Sequence record: NC_054912.1
Length of the DNA stretch: 64,000 nt
Source of the DNA: Escherichia phage vB_EcoM_F1
Strand: one strand, 5' to 3'
Under the pieces are notes generated by a model. The model was not told the DNA's origin. It saw only the letters and a list, made by a program, of their open reading frames with translations, and did no database searches. Position numbers and translations under genes: made by a program. This document shows, piece by piece, positions 2,566-23,895 of this stretch (its first letter is position 1; each line of letters starts with the position of its first letter).

Positions 2566-3361
2566 AGGACATCCAACACATTTTATAACCTTTGCAGGTT
2601 CTGTTAGGATTATTTAATGCTTTCAATATATTAGAAGACCCTATATCTAAATACTCCCTTAATTCATAAAGATAGTTAAAATCAATAGTTTCACCTGTTT
2701 TTACACTTGTGATTCTTATAGGCCTTCTTTCATATTTAGATTTATACAACTCTCTAGTCTTAGCTTTAGTTTCTTCTGACCTAGGAGTGTATGGTTTAAA
2801 TCCTTTTGTTTTAAATGTTTCCATTCTTGATTTAGTTATTTTATCCTGGTGTTCTTTTGTTTTTACAGGTGCTTTTCGCCCATTCTCCCAAGATAACTTG
2901 TTGGCCTGTATTATTTTATCTATTGCTTCTTGCGTATGAGTTTTACCATAAAATGGATTTAATTCGCCTATACGTTGTGAAGCAATATGTGACATTAATT
3001 CTCTTGTTGCTTTAGTATGTTTTTTACCTTTAAATGGGTTGCCATTTTTAGCAATCCATTCTTTCATAAATCTAGAGTGCTCTTTAGAGAATTCTTGTTT
3101 AAGCCAATCATAATCTCTAGAATTTCTAGCTCCCATGTAAAAAGCTCTAATAGCCATAAGCATAGAACGGTTCTTATGAATTTTATAAAGCAATAAATGG
3201 GCGATAAAATGCTCTCTAGGGGTCATTTTAACTAGATTTGATTTAGCATTACTCCCGCCCATAGATTTAGGCAAAATATGGTGAGTTTCAGTATAATTAG
3301 GAATAGTGCTGCGGTTTTTAGCCGCAGCGATAAGTTTATCATAAATTTTACGATAATTCAT
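2564..3361 (-). CDS. HNH-family homing endonuclease-like protein
   Basis: 265-aa ORF with HHILPKSMGG..N motif typical of HNH nucleases; ATG overlaps gene 39 stop (TAATG); track start at 3376 is a TTG. Confidence 0.7.
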   Translation of the reverse strand: MNYRKIYDKLIAAAKNRSTIPNYTETHHILPKSMGGSNAKSNLVKMTPREHFIAHLLLYKIHKNRSMLMAIRAFYMGARNSRDYDWLKQEFSKEHSRFMKEWIAKNGNPFKGKKHTKATRELMSHIASQRIGELNPFYGKTHTQEAIDKIIQANKLSWENGRKAPVKTKEHQDKITKSRMETFKTKGFKPYTPRSEETKAKTRELYKSKYERRPIRITSVKTGETIDFNYLYELREYLDIGSSNILKALNNPNRTCKGYKMCWMS

Positions 3362-5178
3362 TATCCTAGCATCCAATCTTTACGGAGTTCAGGGTCGTTA
3401 CCCATGAGCATTTCAAATAGTTCTTTCCAATTTTCAGGAAGTTTAACTACGTCGTACACAGGGTTTTGAATCATTTCTTTATATTCATCCCGCTGAAGTG
3501 AGCCCAATCCCTTGATGTATCGAATACTATGCTTAGGCAGTGTATCTTTAGCTTCTTCATACTCAGCTACAGTATAAAACCATTTTTGAGTTTTGCCAAT
3601 TTGTGCAATAATTACAGGCGTTTTAACAAAGCGAATACGTCCTTGTTCAAACAATTCAGGCCAATTACTAAAGAAAGCAAGCAAAGCCGGATAAATACTT
3701 CCAAGACCGTCGTGATCTGCGTCAGTCATAATTGCAATATTACGATAGTTCGTATTCTCTGCCTTTTCACCAAGAACTAGACCAGTGATTGCGCAAATAT
3801 CAAATAGTTCTTTGTTTTTAAGCATATCAGCATATGACATACCCCAACTGTTGAGAACTTTACCACGTAATGGATAACCACCATGAAGTTCTTTATCACG
3901 AACATCAATAAGATATCCGATAGCAGAATCACCCTCAGTCAAGAAAAGAGTAGTGTCAGCATCTTTACCACAAAGATTCGCTTTGATATGTTTATGAACC
4001 TTAGCTTTAGAAGCCTTTTTAGCTGCTTTAGTTTCTGCTGCTTTTTCTGCCGCCAATTTACGAGCCAAAGCAGCTTCAATAATCGGCATTAGAATTGCTT
4101 CATTATTTAGAATAGCGCGTGAAATCTTTTTAGCATCAAGTTGAATATGACTACGAATTTCGCCAAATGGAGAAGTCAAACGCTCTTTAGTTTGAGAATC
4201 AAATCGCATGTTTTTCATATCACGAACAAACATGACGATAGTCAAACATTCTTTGACACGTGCTTTAGTTACATCAATTTTGAACTTACGTTTGATTTGT
4301 GGAATAAGGTCTTCACAAATATCATCCATAACACAGTCAATGTGATGGCCACCATTCTTAGTGTGAATGTTATTCACATAAGTTAATTGACGAAAACCAT
4401 CCGGTGAACGACCAACTGCAATAGAACAATTTTCTTGTTCTTGAACGATAGCATGCTCATCATATTGGCGTGCATATTTCTTAAAATTACCCTGAACCTT
4501 TTTACCATTAAAGGTAAATTGAATATCAGGATAAACAACAGCAAGTGTCTGGAGACGATCTAGTGTAATGTCAAGATAAACTTGGGACAGCTCATTAGTT
4601 TCAAATGACATAAAATCAGGAATGAAAGTAACACGAGTTCCTTTCCATTTTCCTGGAATAGTTTCCCATGATTTATTTTCCATGCCATTTGAACAACGAA
4701 CTACAATATTATTTTGACCATCGCCAGTTTCACCAACAAACATCACAGAAAAAATGTTAGTTAAACTAGAACCAACACCATTCATACCGCCAGTGACGCG
4801 TTCTTTATCATCACCGAAGTTACCACCTGCTTTTGGAATAGTCCATGCAGCAACAGGACCAGGAATTTCTTCACCGGTAGGTGTTTTAACCATAGCCTGT
4901 GGAATACCACGACCGTTATCTTCAACTGTTACTTGATTGTTTTTAATAGTAACATTAATTTTATTTGCGAATTTAAACTTAGTACGAATACCTTCATCTA
5001 CTGAGTTATCGATAATTTCATCAATAAGCTTAACAAGACCAGGTACATACTGAACACTTTCCCATTTACCAAACAGAAAGCGCTCATGCATTTCATTAGC
5101 AGAAGAGCCAATATACATGCCGCTACGCTTTTTGATATGTTCAATATCGCTCAGAATTTTAATTTCATTCTTAATCAT
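3361..5178 (-). CDS. 39: DNA topoisomerase II large subunit, unsplit form (gene 39)
   Basis: 605-aa product from the ATG at 5178 (track ORF starts one codon upstream at a GTG); GHKL ATPase and TOPRIM-like motifs; N-terminus MIKNEIKILSDIEHIKKRSGMYIGSS recognised. Confidence 0.9.
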   Translation of the reverse strand: MIKNEIKILSDIEHIKKRSGMYIGSSANEMHERFLFGKWESVQYVPGLVKLIDEIIDNSVDEGIRTKFKFANKINVTIKNNQVTVEDNGRGIPQAMVKTPTGEEIPGPVAAWTIPKAGGNFGDDKERVTGGMNGVGSSLTNIFSVMFVGETGDGQNNIVVRCSNGMENKSWETIPGKWKGTRVTFIPDFMSFETNELSQVYLDITLDRLQTLAVVYPDIQFTFNGKKVQGNFKKYARQYDEHAIVQEQENCSIAVGRSPDGFRQLTYVNNIHTKNGGHHIDCVMDDICEDLIPQIKRKFKIDVTKARVKECLTIVMFVRDMKNMRFDSQTKERLTSPFGEIRSHIQLDAKKISRAILNNEAILMPIIEAALARKLAAEKAAETKAAKKASKAKVHKHIKANLCGKDADTTLFLTEGDSAIGYLIDVRDKELHGGYPLRGKVLNSWGMSYADMLKNKELFDICAITGLVLGEKAENTNYRNIAIMTDADHDGLGSIYPALLAFFSNWPELFEQGRIRFVKTPVIIAQIGKTQKWFYTVAEYEEAKDTLPKHSIRYIKGLGSLQRDEYKEMIQNPVYDVVKLPENWKELFEMLMGNDPELRKDWMLG

Positions 5179-16807: not shown

Positions 16808-17596
<789 letters not shown>

Positions 17597-17698
17597 TCAT
17601 TTATTGCAGCAAAAAACGAATTATATAATTCTTCATCATATGTATTTGATAGTAATACTAACACGTTTTGCGATAAATATTAATTTAAAGGAGGACAT

Positions 17699-17899
17699 AT
17701 GGTACAAAAATTAATGGCACTTGTTAATGCCATAAAAGGTAATAAGAAACGTATAGCTTTTACTATTTCTGCTATGATAGGAATTTTACTTTGGAATTTT
17801 GTTTTATCGCCAGTTGCTATTGCTCATGGCGTTAGTATTCCAGTAGTTACTCTTGATACATTCGTAGATTTAGCATTTGCTTTAGTTGGGTTAATTTAA
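17699..17899 (+). CDS. candidate small membrane protein (66 aa, two hydrophobic segments) on the opposite strand
   Basis: AAAGGAGGA Shine-Dalgarno about 4 nt before ATG; lies in the dam-61 intergenic gap; stop overlaps gene 61 stop. Confidence 0.45.
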   Translation: MVQKLMALVNAIKGNKKRIAFTISAMIGILLWNFVLSPVAIAHGVSIPVVTLDTFVDLAFALVGLI

Positions 17900-18924
17900 A
17901 TCTTAGCATATTTAGATAACCGCATTTTAGCCATCAACCCCTGGGCAATATTATTTTTCATATATTCCATAATTTGTTCAGGGGTTGCACCTTCCTTTCT
18001 AATCATATCATTAACATCTTTTGATTTCCAGGGAGATTTATCCCAAAACATAACCCTTTCTCCTGCATCAACTAATTTAGTCATTCGTTTGATAGTGTCA
18101 GGGTGACGAGGTTCATTATCTAAAACCCACACTCGTCTATCTTTAAATGGAACAACTTCTAGGTCTAATTGACCACCCGTAATAGCTATACCATTTTCAA
18201 TAAAAAGTGAATCTATAGGTCCTTCTAGAACATATACATCACCATCTTTAACCCGTTCGACTCCATAGATTTTTGTTGCCTCAGGATAAGCTTTGATGGT
18301 GATATATTTTTGAGGAGCATCTTTCTTTAATGCACGTCCTTGAAAAGACTCAGCTTTTCCATTAGCATTATAAATTGGAATAACAAGACGAGGCTCAGAA
18401 ATTTCCTTTTTATATGTTCCCGGTGCTATGCTATTAACTAATTTAGGCCATTCGGTTGTAAACCAAAGATATTTCCATTTATCCTTTGGAATACAACGAG
18501 CTTTTACATATTTTATAATTGGATGGTCTTCCGACAGTTTATCTAATCTAACACATGACGGAAGAGATTTAATTATTTTCTTCTCAGGTTGTTTAGGAAG
18601 TTCTTTAGGTTTTTCTACTGGACGACTTTTACCTTTTTCTTTTCTTATTTCAAAGATATACTCACGATATAAATCAGGTTCAAACTCCTTTAAATATATT
18701 CCGATTGGTGCATGATAGTTACAGTTATAACAATGAATATTTCCTTCATTATTATCGCCATAATACCATCCACGGGCTTTATTTTGATCGGTTTTTGAAT
18801 CTCCACAAACGGGACATCTAAACCGTAATTTAAAAGTTGAACTATTATTTACTTGTGCGAATTTAGGTAAATGAGCCAATGCACGGTATGCAAACTCATT
18901 ATCAATCCAAGGTATTGATGACAT
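17896..18924 (-). CDS. 61: DNA primase (gene 61)
   Basis: 342 aa; N-terminal zinc ribbon CPVCGD...CYNC; TOPRIM region; recognised as T4 gp61. Confidence 0.9.
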   Translation of the reverse strand: MSSIPWIDNEFAYRALAHLPKFAQVNNSSTFKLRFRCPVCGDSKTDQNKARGWYYGDNNEGNIHCYNCNYHAPIGIYLKEFEPDLYREYIFEIRKEKGKSRPVEKPKELPKQPEKKIIKSLPSCVRLDKLSEDHPIIKYVKARCIPKDKWKYLWFTTEWPKLVNSIAPGTYKKEISEPRLVIPIYNANGKAESFQGRALKKDAPQKYITIKAYPEATKIYGVERVKDGDVYVLEGPIDSLFIENGIAITGGQLDLEVVPFKDRRVWVLDNEPRHPDTIKRMTKLVDAGERVMFWDKSPWKSKDVNDMIRKEGATPEQIMEYMKNNIAQGLMAKMRLSKYAKI

Positions 18925-18926
18925 TT

Positions 18927-19091
18927 TTACTCTTCTTTTTCTTTAGATTCCTCTTTTTTCTTTTTAGGAATCTGTTCAGGACCTTTATTTACTACAGCAC
19001 CTGATGTTGTTCCAGTAGAGATATTTTCAGGATTACCACCTGAATCTCCAGCAACCATATCTTCTTTAATAAATTCTTTATATGTTTTCAT
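18927..19091 (-). CDS. small Lys/Glu-rich hypothetical protein (54 aa)
   Basis: manually translated MKTYKEFIKEDMVAGDSGGNPENIS...KEKEE; fills the gap upstream of gene 61. Confidence 0.4.
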   Translation of the reverse strand: MKTYKEFIKEDMVAGDSGGNPENISTGTTSGAVVNKGPEQIPKKKKEESKEKEE

Positions 19092-19137
19092 ATTAACCTC
19101 TATTCATAAAAGCATTAAAAATTTGGTCATCAATAGA
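19089..19137 (-). repeat. 49-bp direct repeat, copy 1 (spans stop of 19093..19449 and start of downstream ORF)
   Basis: catattaacctctattcataaaagcattaaaaatttggtcatcaataga; 46/49 identical to copy 2. Confidence 0.6.
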
Positions 19138-19449
19138 TGGAATAGCAACCTTTTCGGCATCATTTAGCAAATCATTAATTTCATCAGATAGCATAACACA
19201 TGTGCCTTTATTTCCTGTAATTGTTACTGCACAATTACGAACGTTTTCTTTATCAAATTTTAGGTTAATATTTTCGTAGTGAAAATCCTTTAATGCCGAA
19301 TATATCTTTAAAATGAAATTGTCTTTTACTACAATAAACCCAACCTCACTATTAAAACGTGGTTCATGGAAACTGTAATAAACCTTTTCATCTATAAAAT
19401 CGTATGAAATTTTTTCCATTTTTAAATATGAAAATTCAGAACTATACAT
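19093..19449 (-). CDS. hypothetical protein (118 aa) with one G.IFV.KDN.I domain
   Basis: shares domain motif and C-terminal tail SIDDQIFNAFMN with the next ORF. Confidence 0.55.
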   Translation of the reverse strand: MYSSEFSYLKMEKISYDFIDEKVYYSFHEPRFNSEVGFIVVKDNFILKIYSALKDFHYENINLKFDKENVRNCAVTITGNKGTCVMLSDEINDLLNDAEKVAIPSIDDQIFNAFMNRG

Positions 19450-19495
19450 ATTAACCTTTATTCATAAAAGCATTAAAAATTTGATCGTCAATAGA
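19447..19495 (-). repeat. 49-bp direct repeat, copy 2
   Basis: catattaacctttattcataaaagcattaaaaatttgatcgtcaataga. Confidence 0.6.
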
Positions 19496-20083
19496 AACTT
19501 TTACTTTAGGCTGTTCTTCAAACGTTAATTCATATCCACATATTACAATTTTGTGATCGATACCAAAATACACAGAAGCAATATTATTAATATTATTTTC
19601 AGTGAAATCTAAATCAACATCAATATCTTTTTGACTAACGCTCAAAGGATAATTAATACGAATAATTCGATTATCTTTAACAAAGATTCCACCGACATAC
19701 TCTGTGCTGCGTTTAAAGTTTACACGTTTCCTAAATGAAAAATATTCAGGCTCTTTATGGGCTCGACTCATAGGGCTTAAAGTGTATTCCGAATATGAAA
19801 TATCAAATCCTACACCTTCAATATGAGCCAAAGTGTCATGATTAAACCAATTATAATCGTATGCCAAATCCATTAAATTGTAATATGTGAAAGGCACCGG
19901 ATTAACATCATATGTTGTACCTTTAAAATCTGCCCAGGCAACGATTTCGTTATCTTTAACAATTACAAAAATTGTGCCAATAAGATATCCACGGTTATTT
20001 TCATCAGGCGTTATATTATAACATTGTGCATCAGGAAATTTACCGTATTTAAACGGTGGATTTTTGTGCATATAATAAATCAT
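19451..20083 (-). CDS. hypothetical protein (210 aa) with two G.IFV.KDN.I domains
   Basis: internal duplication; same C-terminal tail as 19093..19449. Confidence 0.55.
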   Translation of the reverse strand: MIYYMHKNPPFKYGKFPDAQCYNITPDENNRGYLIGTIFVIVKDNEIVAWADFKGTTYDVNPVPFTYYNLMDLAYDYNWFNHDTLAHIEGVGFDISYSEYTLSPMSRAHKEPEYFSFRKRVNFKRSTEYVGGIFVKDNRIIRINYPLSVSQKDIDVDLDFTENNINNIASVYFGIDHKIVICGYELTFEEQPKVKVSIDDQIFNAFMNKG

Positions 20084-20084
20084 A

Positions 20085-20378
20085 TTATTCGCCTGTGATT
20101 TCGGTTACGGTATTTTTGTTATTAAAGTTTTTATCGCAATACAGAACATAATTATACTGCATTACACCGCCAGACTTAAGTTGTTTTTGAACTTCGGCTT
20201 TCATTTCAGGACGATCACGCTCAACGATATTCATAATATCTGCTTCAATTTGAGTTTCAACCTCAGTCTGATCTGCAGTCATAGACCATTCGCACAAATC
20301 TTTATCATAACCTGCCATAGCAGGCTGAGCAGCGCAAGAAGCTAAAGCAAAAATTGTAGCAAAGATAAATTTTTTCAT
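20085..20378 (-). CDS. sp: Spackle periplasmic protein (superinfection/lysozyme inhibitor)
   Basis: 97 aa from ATG 20378 with GAGGAG RBS; signal peptide MKKFIFATIFALASCAAQPAMA; recognised as T4 Sp. Confidence 0.8.
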   Translation of the reverse strand: MKKFIFATIFALASCAAQPAMAGYDKDLCEWSMTADQTEVETQIEADIMNIVERDRPEMKAEVQKQLKSGGVMQYNYVLYCDKNFNNKNTVTEITGE

Positions 20379-20404
20379 GATTAATCTCCTCAGTAGTTTA
20401 TGTT

Positions 20405-20437
20405 TATATAGTATCTCAATTTCCAATAAAAGTAAAC
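20405..20437 (-). promoter_or_regulatory. T4-type early promoter upstream of sp
   Basis: minus strand GTTTACttttattggaaattgagaTACTATATA. Confidence 0.45.
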
Positions 20438-20439
20438 AG

Positions 20440-20697
20440 TTATTTTAAAACTTTTGCGTAATCACATGTTACAAACTGTTTCTCTAGCTTAACGATCTTA
20501 CGAAAATACCTTTTACACTGACGAATCTGTCGCTTCGTAGGGCGCACAGCAAACTTAATAAATTCTACTCGACCAAATGGAGGGCTTTCTTCCGCTGGAA
20601 TATCTAACACCAATTCCCACGTATCCGCAATAAGTGCCTTGAATTGAGTATTTTTCCTGACGTTATACGGAGTAGGTTTAAATAAAACAATATGCAT
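20440..20697 (-). CDS. hypothetical 85-aa protein in the 61.4 position (possibly TifA-like)
   Basis: ATG at 20697 one nt after dmd stop; track ORF extends to 20739; identity by position and length only. Confidence 0.45.
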   Translation of the reverse strand: MHIVLFKPTPYNVRKNTQFKALIADTWELVLDIPAEESPPFGRVEFIKFAVRPTKRQIRQCKRYFRKIVKLEKQFVTCDYAKVLK

Positions 20698-20698
20698 A

Positions 20699-20881
20699 TT
20701 ATCCTCGGCAATCCACTTCGCACACTTTCTTGTCATCAATGAAAGCTTTAACTAATGCTTTATTAACTTCAGCATACTGAGTAGTAGCCCATTGAACGTC
20801 ATCTTTCATCATTGTGGTTTCTTTAGTAAACATGCTTTCATTCTTAAACCACCCCATAAAAACTACCTTTACCAATTCCAT
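20699..20881 (-). CDS. dmd: Dmd, antitoxin against RnlA/LsoA RNase toxins
   Basis: 60 aa MELVKVVFMGWFKNESMFTKE... recognised as T4 Dmd. Confidence 0.85.
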   Translation of the reverse strand: MELVKVVFMGWFKNESMFTKETTMMKDDVQWATTQYAEVNKALVKAFIDDKKVCEVDCRG

Positions 20882-20910
20882 AACAATCTCCTCATTTAAC
20901 CAACAAGACT

Positions 20911-20940
20911 ACTATACCATAGTCTTGTCAGCTTGTAAAC
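20911..20940 (-). promoter_or_regulatory. T4-type early promoter upstream of dmd
   Basis: minus strand GTTTACaagctgacaagactaTGGTATAGT. Confidence 0.5.
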
Positions 20941-22367
20941 TAAAATTTTAATTCATTTGCCAAAGCATCTAACTGAGCTCGAGTCGATTCGTTTCTTTGA
21001 TAGCGATTCTGCTCAGCTTGTATCTGTTGTGAACCTGCTACCTCACTCACTTCAGTTGGAGTAGAATCTTGTTCAATTTCTACCCATTTCTGATTTCCTT
21101 TTTGAACACCCATCAAAAACTTATTCCATTTATTCTTATCACCATATCGTGATTTGATTTGCTTAATAAGTTGTTGCTCAGCAGCTGCTAACTCCTCAGT
21201 TTCAATGACCGCAAGCATAAAATCAGCTGTTGCTGGAAGACCAGCAGATTCTGCAATATCGCTCATGTTAACATCAGAAGAATCCCAAGCTTGTTTACCA
21301 ACCTGTGCTGCAGTCCAAAGAACAGTTTCGGTTTCAACAGCCAGAGCACGCAATTCCTCTGCAATAGCTTTAACAGTTGTGTAACTATTTTCTGAATAAA
21401 CTCTAATGCGGCAAGATTTACAAATACCTAGATAGTCAACAATAATGATTGTTGGAACAAAATTCTTCTTGAGCTTCAATTCGTTTAAAAGTGATCGAAA
21501 TGTATTAGCATCTGCCCCACCAGTAGGATACTGTTTAACGATTAAACGACCGAGAGTAGATTTCTCACGCCATTTTTCCATTTTTCCTTTATACTCAGCG
21601 TAAGAAATATGTCCATCATCAATATCGTCAAGAGAAACATCGAGCATGTTAGCATCAATACGTTTAGCACAGACTTCTTCTGCCATTTCCATGGAAATGT
21701 AAAGAACATTATGTCCGAGCTGTAAATAATCTGCTGCCAATGAACACAGACCTAATGACTTACCAACGTTAACGCCAGCCATTAAAACGTTCAGTGTTCC
21801 AGTCTCAGCTCCGCCTTTAGTAATTTTGTTTAGAATTCTGAGTTTAAATGGAACCTTGCGAGCTTTATTCATATAAGATAGCCAACGTGCTTCGTAGTCA
21901 TCCATCCAATCATGACCAACGTAGCTATCAAATGAAATTGATAATGCTTGGCGCATGATGTCAGGAATAGCACCAACATCCGGCAATTTCTTATTTCGTT
22001 TTTCCGGAGGAAGTTCAGCATTAGTTTGAATTTCGATTATTTTAGACGTAGCATTAAACATCGCCCTTTGCTGAACATATTTTTCTGTTTCTTTTACTAA
22101 CCAACTGTGGTCTTCTGGAGAATCAGCTAGTTTTGAAATAAGTGTTTTTACACCAGAATATTCTGTTTCAGTAAATGAACTATTTTCTAATGCAACATTT
22201 AACGCATTAATAGATGGAACGCTATGATACTCATTAACATGGGATTTAATTAATTTGAATGTATTTTTAGCTGGACCACTTTCAAAATATTCTGAATCCA
22301 TATATGGCCAAACTTTTGAAAAATAAGCTTGATCAAATATGAGATGAGAAAGAATAATTTCTACCAC
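20940..22367 (-). CDS. 41: replicative DnaB-like helicase (gene 41)
   Basis: 475 aa; Walker A GVNVGKS; recognised as T4 gp41. Confidence 0.9.
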   Translation of the reverse strand: MVEIILSHLIFDQAYFSKVWPYMDSEYFESGPAKNTFKLIKSHVNEYHSVPSINALNVALENSSFTETEYSGVKTLISKLADSPEDHSWLVKETEKYVQQRAMFNATSKIIEIQTNAELPPEKRNKKLPDVGAIPDIMRQALSISFDSYVGHDWMDDYEARWLSYMNKARKVPFKLRILNKITKGGAETGTLNVLMAGVNVGKSLGLCSLAADYLQLGHNVLYISMEMAEEVCAKRIDANMLDVSLDDIDDGHISYAEYKGKMEKWREKSTLGRLIVKQYPTGGADANTFRSLLNELKLKKNFVPTIIIVDYLGICKSCRIRVYSENSYTTVKAIAEELRALAVETETVLWTAAQVGKQAWDSSDVNMSDIAESAGLPATADFMLAVIETEELAAAEQQLIKQIKSRYGDKNKWNKFLMGVQKGNQKWVEIEQDSTPTEVSEVAGSQQIQAEQNRYQRNESTRAQLDALANELKF

Positions 22368-22376
22368 ACTTACTCC

Positions 22377-22739
22377 TTAAAAGAATTTAAACTTTTTCTT
22401 TGATCTTTTATTAAATGCATCTTGTAGTTGCATTGTAATACATTTTTCTACATGAGGAGCTAACTCAGCTTTTCTTTCTTGGTCAAGAACAGCAAAGTCC
22501 ATTACGACTTTTCCATCAACCCAATCTAATTTTGTCACATACACAATGTGTGTAGAACCATCTTCTAGTTTAATAACAATCTCCTGGATAACATTTTCCA
22601 TGGCAGATTTAATTATCTTAAGAGATTCATTAAAAAGACGTTCTTTTCTTTCTTCTTCCCCCTCCGAAGAGGGGGATTCGTCGATAATTTCTAGATCTAA
22701 ATCTAAATCATCTTTATTCATTAAATTCTTCCATATCAC
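22377..22739 (-). CDS. 40: gene 40 head-assembly protein (candidate)
   Basis: 120-aa acidic protein between 41 and uvsX as in T4. Confidence 0.55.
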   Translation of the reverse strand: MIWKNLMNKDDLDLDLEIIDESPSSEGEEERKERLFNESLKIIKSAMENVIQEIVIKLEDGSTHIVYVTKLDWVDGKVVMDFAVLDQERKAELAPHVEKCITMQLQDAFNKRSKKKFKFF

Positions 22740-23895
22740 TTAGCTGATCTAGGTCAGTTTCTAAATCAGCCGCTGATTTACTTTTACTTTCTGGAGATTT
22801 AAATTTTTCAACCTTTGAGTTAATCAATTCATCAACTTCAGCTTCAACAATTTCATTACTATCAATAGCACCTAACTGATAAGCACGTTTAATAGCATCT
22901 CGGAATGGTTGATGCTTAAATAAAGGACCCCAGAATGTAGTGCAGTTGGTATCTTTTGCACGCCAAGATTTTTCTTCGCGAATCATCTCGCCGGTTTCTT
23001 CATCAAGAAATTCACGAGCATACCAGCCATTTTTTGGTTTTACTACAAATCCTAATTCTAGAGCCATATCTAACAATCCAGAATAAGGATCGATACCACC
23101 GTCAAATTTAACATCAATAAAGAATTTACTTTTTTCTTTAACGGTACGAGATTTTTCTACATTTAGAACAAATTGATACCCCTGAAGATCAGAACCATCT
23201 TTAATCTGACGTTTACCGATAATGAATACGGTATCAGCCGAATACATTACGCCTGTACCACCTGTCATCACGGTTTTACTAAACATTTCAATTGTTTCAA
23301 TTGTATGGTTAACCGCAACACATGGAATATTTTTAATGCTAAAATAAGGAGTAACAATACGGAATAATGACTTCAGTGATTTAGCACGAGTCATATCTGC
23401 CACAGATTTTTCATTCAAGGCATCTTCCGTTTCTTTCTTAGAAGCCATATTACCGATTGAGTCGATGAATACAATAACCTTTTCACCACGCTCAATAGCT
23501 TCAAGCTGGTTCACCATATCAATTTTCAGCTGTTCAACTGACTGGATTGGCGTATGAATTACTCGTTCCGGATCAACTCCCATGGATCGCAAATAAGCTG
23601 GAGTAATACCAAATTCGCTATCATAGAATAGACAAACCGCGTCAGGATATTTGTTCAAATATGCCGCAACCATAGTCAAAGACATATTTGATTTAAAGTG
23701 TTTAGAAGGCCCTGCAAAAATAGTTAAACCAGACTGCATACCGCCATCAATCGCACCAGAAATAGCGATATTAAGCATTGGAATTTTTGTACGAATTACA
23801 TCCTTTTCATTAAAGAATTTAGATGTAGTCAGTTCAGCAGTCATTTTAGAAGTGGAAGCTTTAATCAAACGGGATTTTAAATCTGCAATAGACAT
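22714..23895 (-). CDS. uvsX: UvsX RecA-like recombinase
   Basis: 393 aa; Walker A GPSKHFKS; recognised as T4 UvsX. Confidence 0.9.
   Translation of the reverse strand: MSIADLKSRLIKASTSKMTAELTTSKFFNEKDVIRTKIPMLNIAISGAIDGGMQSGLTIFAGPSKHFKSNMSLTMVAAYLNKYPDAVCLFYDSEFGITPAYLRSMGVDPERVIHTPIQSVEQLKIDMVNQLEAIERGEKVIVFIDSIGNMASKKETEDALNEKSVADMTRAKSLKSLFRIVTPYFSIKNIPCVAVNHTIETIEMFSKTVMTGGTGVMYSADTVFIIGKRQIKDGSDLQGYQFVLNVEKSRTVKEKSKFFIDVKFDGGIDPYSGLLDMALELGFVVKPKNGWYAREFLDEETGEMIREEKSWRAKDTNCTTFWGPLFKHQPFRDAIKRAYQLGAIDSNEIVEAEVDELINSKVEKFKSPESKSKSAADLETDLDQLSDMEEFNE

Follow-up and report, generated by a model that had tools for sequence, protein, structure and literature searches.

Dmd, TifA and Spackle orthologues in two predicted early transcription units between genes 41 and 61 of Escherichia phage vB_EcoM_F1

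The small genes between helicase gene 41 and primase gene 61 of Escherichia phage vB_EcoM_F1 raise the question of whether sp, an 85-aa ORF and dmd make up a compact counter-defence island, every gene being driven by a separate early promoter, as a first-pass annotation of this DNA had proposed. We examined the locus in a window comprising the whole 64,000-nucleotide stretch analysed (record NC_054912.1). Very probably, the three genes are divided between two early transcription units in the variable region that this T4-type phage has between genes 41 and 61, and their functions are assigned by orthology. The activities given below would follow those of the tested T4, T2 and RB69 proteins.

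Every gene of the 41–61 region lies on the minus strand, both in the ORF map and in the source record. In the direction of transcription, the gene map runs from gene 41 (20940-22367) through dmd (61.5; 60 aa; 20699-20881), the 85-aa ORF in the 61.4 position (20440-20697), sp (61.3; 97 aa; 20085-20378), adfA (61.2; 210 aa; 19451-20083), an adfA-like ORF of 118 aa (19093-19449) and 61.1 (18927-19091) to gene 61 (17896-18924). The three adjacent ORFs are present where the first-pass annotation had placed them. Each starts at an ATG with a GAGG-type Shine-Dalgarno sequence in front of it, and the Pfam matches of Sp, the 85-aa protein and Dmd all exceed the curated cut-offs. Longer TTG-initiated versions in the mechanical ORF list were rejected as the genes.

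Protein identities to T4 refer to NC_000866 throughout. The GenBank source record labels every small gene here ‘hypothetical protein’, and an Rfam search of 17500-23000 at a permissive E-value returned no match. A 1-kb query around the locus also matches some 600 further T4-like phages at 60–99%, and the phage is one that we take to belong to the genus Tequatrovirus. Between dam and gene 61, a small plus-strand ORF (17699-17899) is annotated that opposes local transcription and shares 4 nt with the 3′ end of gene 61. The Lutter record annotates this ORF too, and RB69 has a comparable annotated one.

The gaps between these genes, read from gene 41 down to gene 61, are 58, 1, 61, 1, 1, 1 and 2 nt, and two early promoters occupy the only two spacers (58 and 61 nt). 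The dmd-tifA promoter (20911-20940, minus strand) consists of TTTACA preceded by G, a 17-nt spacer and a TG-extended −10 element, TATAGT. The sp promoter (20408-20437, minus strand) consists of TTTACT, likewise preceded by G, a 17-nt spacer and the −10 element TACTAT, a variant seen six more times in the window. Compared with the T4-type early promoter consensus TTTACW-N17-TAYWAT (PMC4122927), the sp promoter fits exactly and the dmd promoter has one mismatch, in TATAGT, together with its extended TG.

The dmd promoter is identical in T4 and T2, and its position after gene 41 is conserved in T4, T2, RB69, mar005P1, IME341 and Q7622. For the sp promoter, position is conserved in T4, T2, RB69, mar005P1 and IME341 while the surrounding bases diverge. 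Its equivalent lies 2–4 nt past the tifA stop codon in T4, T2, RB69 and IME341 even where a different gene follows, as in RB69, which keeps a promoter after tifA though the next gene is imm.1 and not sp. In the Lutter record, both places carry promoter annotations; the T4 records AF158101 and NC_000866 carry no promoter features in this region. The late promoter motif TATAAATA is absent from the region, with only three occurrences in the window, below the chance expectation. The earlier placement of two early promoters near 20405-20437 and 20911-20940 therefore holds, on consensus match, positional conservation and the Lutter annotation.

The companion claim, that each gene has an early promoter of its own, does not hold, because dmd and tifA form one operon behind one promoter, leaving two promoters for three genes. 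A single nucleotide separates the dmd stop codon from the tifA ATG, and no promoter match precedes that ATG or falls inside dmd. In T4, dmd and 61.4 are a two-gene operon behind an early promoter, and early-gene status has been reported for T4 dmd (PMC9391042) and sp (PMC7677548). The dmd-tifA adjacency is common to T4, T2, RB69 and mar005P1; in IME341 a 47-aa ORF lies between the two genes. From spacing and promoter consensus, we infer the units P-dmd-tifA and P-sp-adfA-118-aa ORF-61.1-61, with transcription predicted to start around minus-strand positions 20904 and 20401.

A MotA-box-like sequence, TGCTTTGG...TAAAAT, is also found at 20945-20967 (minus strand), where it occupies the 3′ end of gene 41 and lies a short distance upstream of the dmd promoter. 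Such a site could give dmd-tifA middle-mode expression. We do not claim a MotA-type promoter there, the pattern being only two-fold enriched.

The sp product is 94% identical to T4 Spackle (91/97 residues) and matches Pfam T4_Spackle (PF25676) at 8e-45, in agreement with its first-pass identification. PDB entries 6x6o and 7cn6 match it, the mature chain of 7cn6 aligning to residues 23-97. The T4 signal peptide is reproduced exactly in residues 1-22, leaving a mature part of 75 aa. Both Cys29 and Cys81 are present, the pair that forms a disulfide in the helical bundle of mature Spackle (PMC7677548). The six substitutions relative to T4 are K53E, I90T, I91V, A92T, V94I and V95T. Five of these fall within the last eight residues (20085-20111, minus strand), and the Lutter protein has the same five.

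T4 Spackle, made early and located in the periplasm, inhibits the tail lysozyme gp5 of T-even phages that superinfect the cell; its inhibition of the gp5 lysozyme domain is stoichiometric (PMC7677548). By orthology, the window protein would inhibit gp5 lysozyme and serve in superinfection exclusion. Spackle is a superinfection-exclusion factor, not a counter-defence factor directed against the host.

This bears directly on the reading of the three genes as one self-contained counter-defence island of independently promoted cassettes. In its favour, these are small early genes lying side by side, two of which encode anti-toxin factors. Furthermore, in RB69 imm.1, imm and sp each stand behind their own GTTTAC promoter. 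Against this, tifA has no promoter and begins 1 nt after dmd, sp is tightly joined to adfA and onwards to the essential primase gene, Spackle acts on other phages and not on host defence (PMC7677548), and in RB69 imm.1 and imm lie between tifA and sp. We consider the self-contained island highly unlikely, and independently promoted cassettes are already contradicted by the gene spacing. What survives of the label is that dmd and tifA are anti-toxin genes. The part that fails is its coverage: sp targets superinfecting phages, and adfA (19451-20083) lies outside the interval that the label was given to.

In the two Mosigvirus records, RB69 (3449-4256) and mar005P1 (2774-3515), an insertion of the superinfection genes imm.1 and imm separates tifA from sp, an arrangement seen in RB69-type phages. 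Each of RB69 imm.1, imm and sp follows its own GTTTAC...TA(C/T)(T/A)(A/G)T promoter, as does mar005P1 sp, resembling modular promoter-plus-gene cassettes. Given the imm.1/imm insertion, the role of Spackle and the gene spacing, the 41–61 interval is most aptly viewed as a variable region containing both anti-toxin and superinfection-exclusion cassettes, and not as a single-purpose unit.

A second alternative concerns the promoters themselves, which could be chance matches in AT-rich DNA, with transcription supplied only by read-through from upstream of gene 41. A generic sigma-70 scan would allow this reading, since it gave 18 sites against 16.2 expected from shuffled sequence and so no enrichment in this AT-rich DNA. 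That scan found the dmd promoter (at 20939-20911; 10/12 plus TG) and missed the sp promoter (8/12). For both reasons the generic sigma-70/terminator scan was replaced by a phage-specific pattern. With 24 occurrences in the window and 2.4 expected, the phage-specific pattern, GTTTAC-N17-19-TANNNT, is roughly ten-fold enriched; 21 of the 24 matches are on the minus strand, and both promoter sites are among them. The sites also fall in the only two intergenic gaps of the region and keep their position across genera despite divergence of the flanking bases. Coincidence is thus a very improbable account, more so even than the self-contained island, and two genuine early promoters remain the preferred reading.

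The first gene of the upstream unit encodes a protein identical to T4 Dmd at 59 of 60 residues (98%), the sole substitution being I22T. Pfam Dmd (PF17587) covers residues 1-60 of 60 (1.8e-45, 153.5 bits), PDB 5hy3_B ‘Antitoxin Dmd’ matches at 1e-36, and the product falls in PHROG 2102, all in keeping with the name first given to this gene. By orthology, it would act as an antitoxin-like inhibitor of the host RnlA and LsoA endoribonuclease toxins, an activity of Dmd described in literature cited in PMC3014915.

The second gene of the unit, the 85-aa ORF, had been proposed as a TifA-like toxin inhibitor. Aligned with T4 gp61.4, as had been suggested, its product is identical at 83 of 85 residues (98%), differing only by E82K and I83V in the C-terminal extension. 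It is identical at all 85 residues (100%) to the T2 protein of record LC348380.1, from which the laboratory T2 stock of the 2022 study (PMC9391042) may differ. Pfam DUF7279, the TifA family, matches the ORF at 2.3e-20 (72.7 bits against a cut-off of 24.5). F41, P53, T54, K55, R56 and R59 are all retained, and the stretch PTKRQIRQ is invariant over six homologues (including that of the window); homologues from four genera share it though otherwise only 36–57% identical. The proposal was correct, though it had been said to rest on position and length only; sequence identity and the kept functional residues support it as well.

That the ORF merely occupies the 61.4 position, as an unrelated or non-functional small protein, might be read from its bare ‘hypothetical protein’ label, the unknown-function status of its family in Pfam and PHROGs and the lack of any solved relative in a PDB sequence search, yet the chance of this is vanishingly small given the T2 and T4 identities, the retention of every functionally tested residue and a family conserved in 674 phage records. 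The alignment with TifA refutes an unrelated protein. We conclude that the 85-aa ORF is the TifA orthologue, a protein whose function and mechanism are published.

Gene 61.4 of T4 was renamed tifA in 2022, when T4 was found to escape toxIN, a type III toxin-antitoxin system, by amplification of the dmd-tifA locus, and when ToxN was neutralised by each of the T4, T2, T6 and RB69 TifA proteins (Srikant et al. 2022, PMC9391042). ToxN is an endoribonuclease, and TifA inhibits it by means of a basic helix that binds RNA (Guegler et al. 2023, PMC10853763). This helix, capped by Pro-Thr (P53, T54) and carrying K55, R56 and R59, is needed for both RNA binding and ToxN neutralisation, and the potency of the protein is set by residue 41, at which the F of T4 is weak and S or H is stronger (PMC10853763). 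For T4, T2, T6 and RB69, TifA has been reported to bind both ToxN and RNA and to restore phage growth on hosts carrying toxIN (PMC9391042, PMC10853763). The alignment and ToxIN-rescue tests suggested earlier have therefore already been published for those four phages.

From the complete identity to the T2 protein, the window TifA would likewise bind and inhibit ToxN. Because its TifA is identical to that of T2 and keeps F41, the phage is predicted to behave like T2 and T4, being protected from ToxIN at chromosomal level and restricted by plasmid-borne (high-copy) ToxIN.

Downstream of sp, adfA starts 1 nt after the sp stop codon. Pfam AdfA (PF23813) covers residues 1-210 of the product (4.7e-138, 457.9 bits), which is 72% identical to T4 gp61.2 and is a homologue of anti-DarT factor A. 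A His at the equivalent of RB69 residue 164 has been reported to enable DarT1 neutralisation, and T4 AdfA has no detectable phenotype against DarTG1 (PMC11257639). We checked the ‘164’ numbering against the primer-defined start in PMC11257639. In that column T4 has His, RB69 has Arg (R164) and the window protein has Asn (within NNINNIAS) in place of the His. This Asn, residue 167 of the window AdfA (163 when counted from the MHKN start), matches neither described allele. The activity of the window AdfA is uncertain because T4 AdfA has no DarTG1 phenotype and because of the Asn in this column.

The neighbouring 118-aa ORF encodes a single-domain paralogue of the AdfA C-terminal half, 38% identical to residues 111-210. 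It matches Pfam AdfA at 2.3e-8, has its own PHROG (4122) and occurs in 331 phage records. Among the phages compared, the long gene stands alone in T4 and the 118-aa form alone in T2, and the window phage and Lutter have both. T2 has been described as having no adfA (PMC11257639).

Two copies of a 49-nt direct repeat (19089-19137 and 19447-19495), 94% identical and spaced 358 nt apart, bracket exactly this ORF. The repeat encodes a shared protein tail, SIDDQIFNAFMN[KR]G, followed by the stop codon and the next ATG. Both copies contain a MotA-box-like TGCTTTTA-N12-TAATAT (19090-19114 and 19448-19472, minus strand) overlapping the stop and start codons; this pattern is only two-fold enriched in the window. 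The Lutter record annotates promoters at the equivalents of both copies. The repeat might hold a middle promoter within coding sequence, which could account for the near-identical conserved tails.

A further, doubtful suggestion is that the 118-aa ORF is a mobile single-domain AdfA derivative, gained or lost by recombination between repeats that would serve as both coding tail and MotA-type promoter, and that it could neutralise a toxin that full-length AdfA does not (another DarT or TA toxin). Were this so, an AdfA-family factor would be present even in phages said to be ‘lacking adfA’, T2 among them. As a side observation, the repeat-bracketed half-size paralogue is mildly new.

The dmd promoter coincides with a hairpin. 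A 15-bp stem at 20898-20933 (minus strand), directly after the gene 41 stop codon, is formed by the palindromic promoter spacer and −10 element. RNA folding gave −21.3 kcal/mol (z = −4.2), and none of 200 shuffles folded as well. The hairpin would fold only in RNA that reads through from gene 41. RB69, mar005P1, IME341 and Q7622 instead have a separate GGAGnCTTCGGnCTCC (UUCG-loop) terminator hairpin before the promoter. In the tifA-sp spacer, RNA folding detected no significant hairpin (z = +1.25), and that spacer is therefore not a hairpin-plus-promoter cassette. The palindromic promoter spacer is, again as a side observation, mildly new.

Taken together, the proposed sequence of events would begin at the early promoter at 20911-20940, which would drive dmd and tifA and yield their products within minutes of infection. 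Each product would neutralise a different host endoribonuclease toxin of toxin-antitoxin defence. Dmd would bind RnlA or LsoA directly. TifA would bind ToxN and RNA via its basic C-terminal helix (PT cap, K55, R56 and R59), so that ToxN would be trapped in an inactive ribonucleoprotein complex and phage transcripts would stay uncut. From the early promoter at 20408-20437, the second unit would express sp, adfA, the 118-aa adfA-like ORF, 61.1 and 61, separated by 1–2 nt. Spackle would be exported to the periplasm, where it would inhibit the gp5 tail lysozyme of later-arriving T-even phages and so exclude superinfection, while AdfA would contribute a homologue of the factor that counters DarT.

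TifA, Dmd, Spackle and the concept of an anti-TA island are all already known, and the discovery value of the locus is small, as the exact TifA sequence is that of T2, whose homologue has been tested. Its practical value lies in annotation: these small genes stand as ‘hypothetical protein’ in GenBank, and the TifA family is still of ‘unknown function’ in Pfam and PHROGs. The comparison also supports a host-range prediction, in that the weak F41 allele leads us to expect a block by high-copy ToxIN. In addition, the AdfA half-paralogue and hairpin-folding promoter spacers could help to explain how accessory cassettes are shuffled among T-even phages.

Set against known systems, the individual proteins resemble their T4 counterparts closely. 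Like T4 Dmd (gp61.5, PDB 5HY3), the window Dmd has 60 aa and opens the equivalent operon, differing by I22T. As in T4 and T2, TifA has 85 aa, lies directly downstream of dmd behind an equal promoter sequence and carries both the F41 loop residue and the PT-capped basic helix; RB69 TifA has H41 and the Thu1 and R2 proteins S41, so that the window phage carries the weaker F41 allele. Spackle shares with T4 gp61.3 (PDB 6X6O, 6XC0 and 7CN6) its length of 97 aa, an identical signal peptide, Cys29/Cys81 and an early promoter of its own, and differs by six substitutions, five of them C-terminal.

At the level of the locus, the closest precedent is the ‘anti-TA island’ of T4-like phages (dmd, tifA and 61.2 = adfA) proposed in 2022 (PMC9391042). 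The window has these three genes too, likewise between genes 41 and 61 and in unchanged order. The window differs in adding the 118-aa AdfA paralogue, which T4 does not have, and in the AdfA Asn where T4 has His and RB69 Arg.

The promoter regions recall the PeSL cassettes, short intergenic elements in which a stem-loop terminator stands immediately before a T4-type early promoter at variable small genes (Arbiol 2010, PMC2839356; Comeau 2014, PMC4122927). As in those cassettes, the window elements are short, intergenic, equipped with a T4-type early promoter and bordered by variable small genes, and in the RB69-like relatives the element downstream of gene 41 consists of a hairpin and then a promoter. 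In the window, by contrast, the hairpin overlaps the promoter, using its spacer and −10 element, rather than preceding it, and 20898-20933 may be a compressed, PeSL-like terminator/promoter element.
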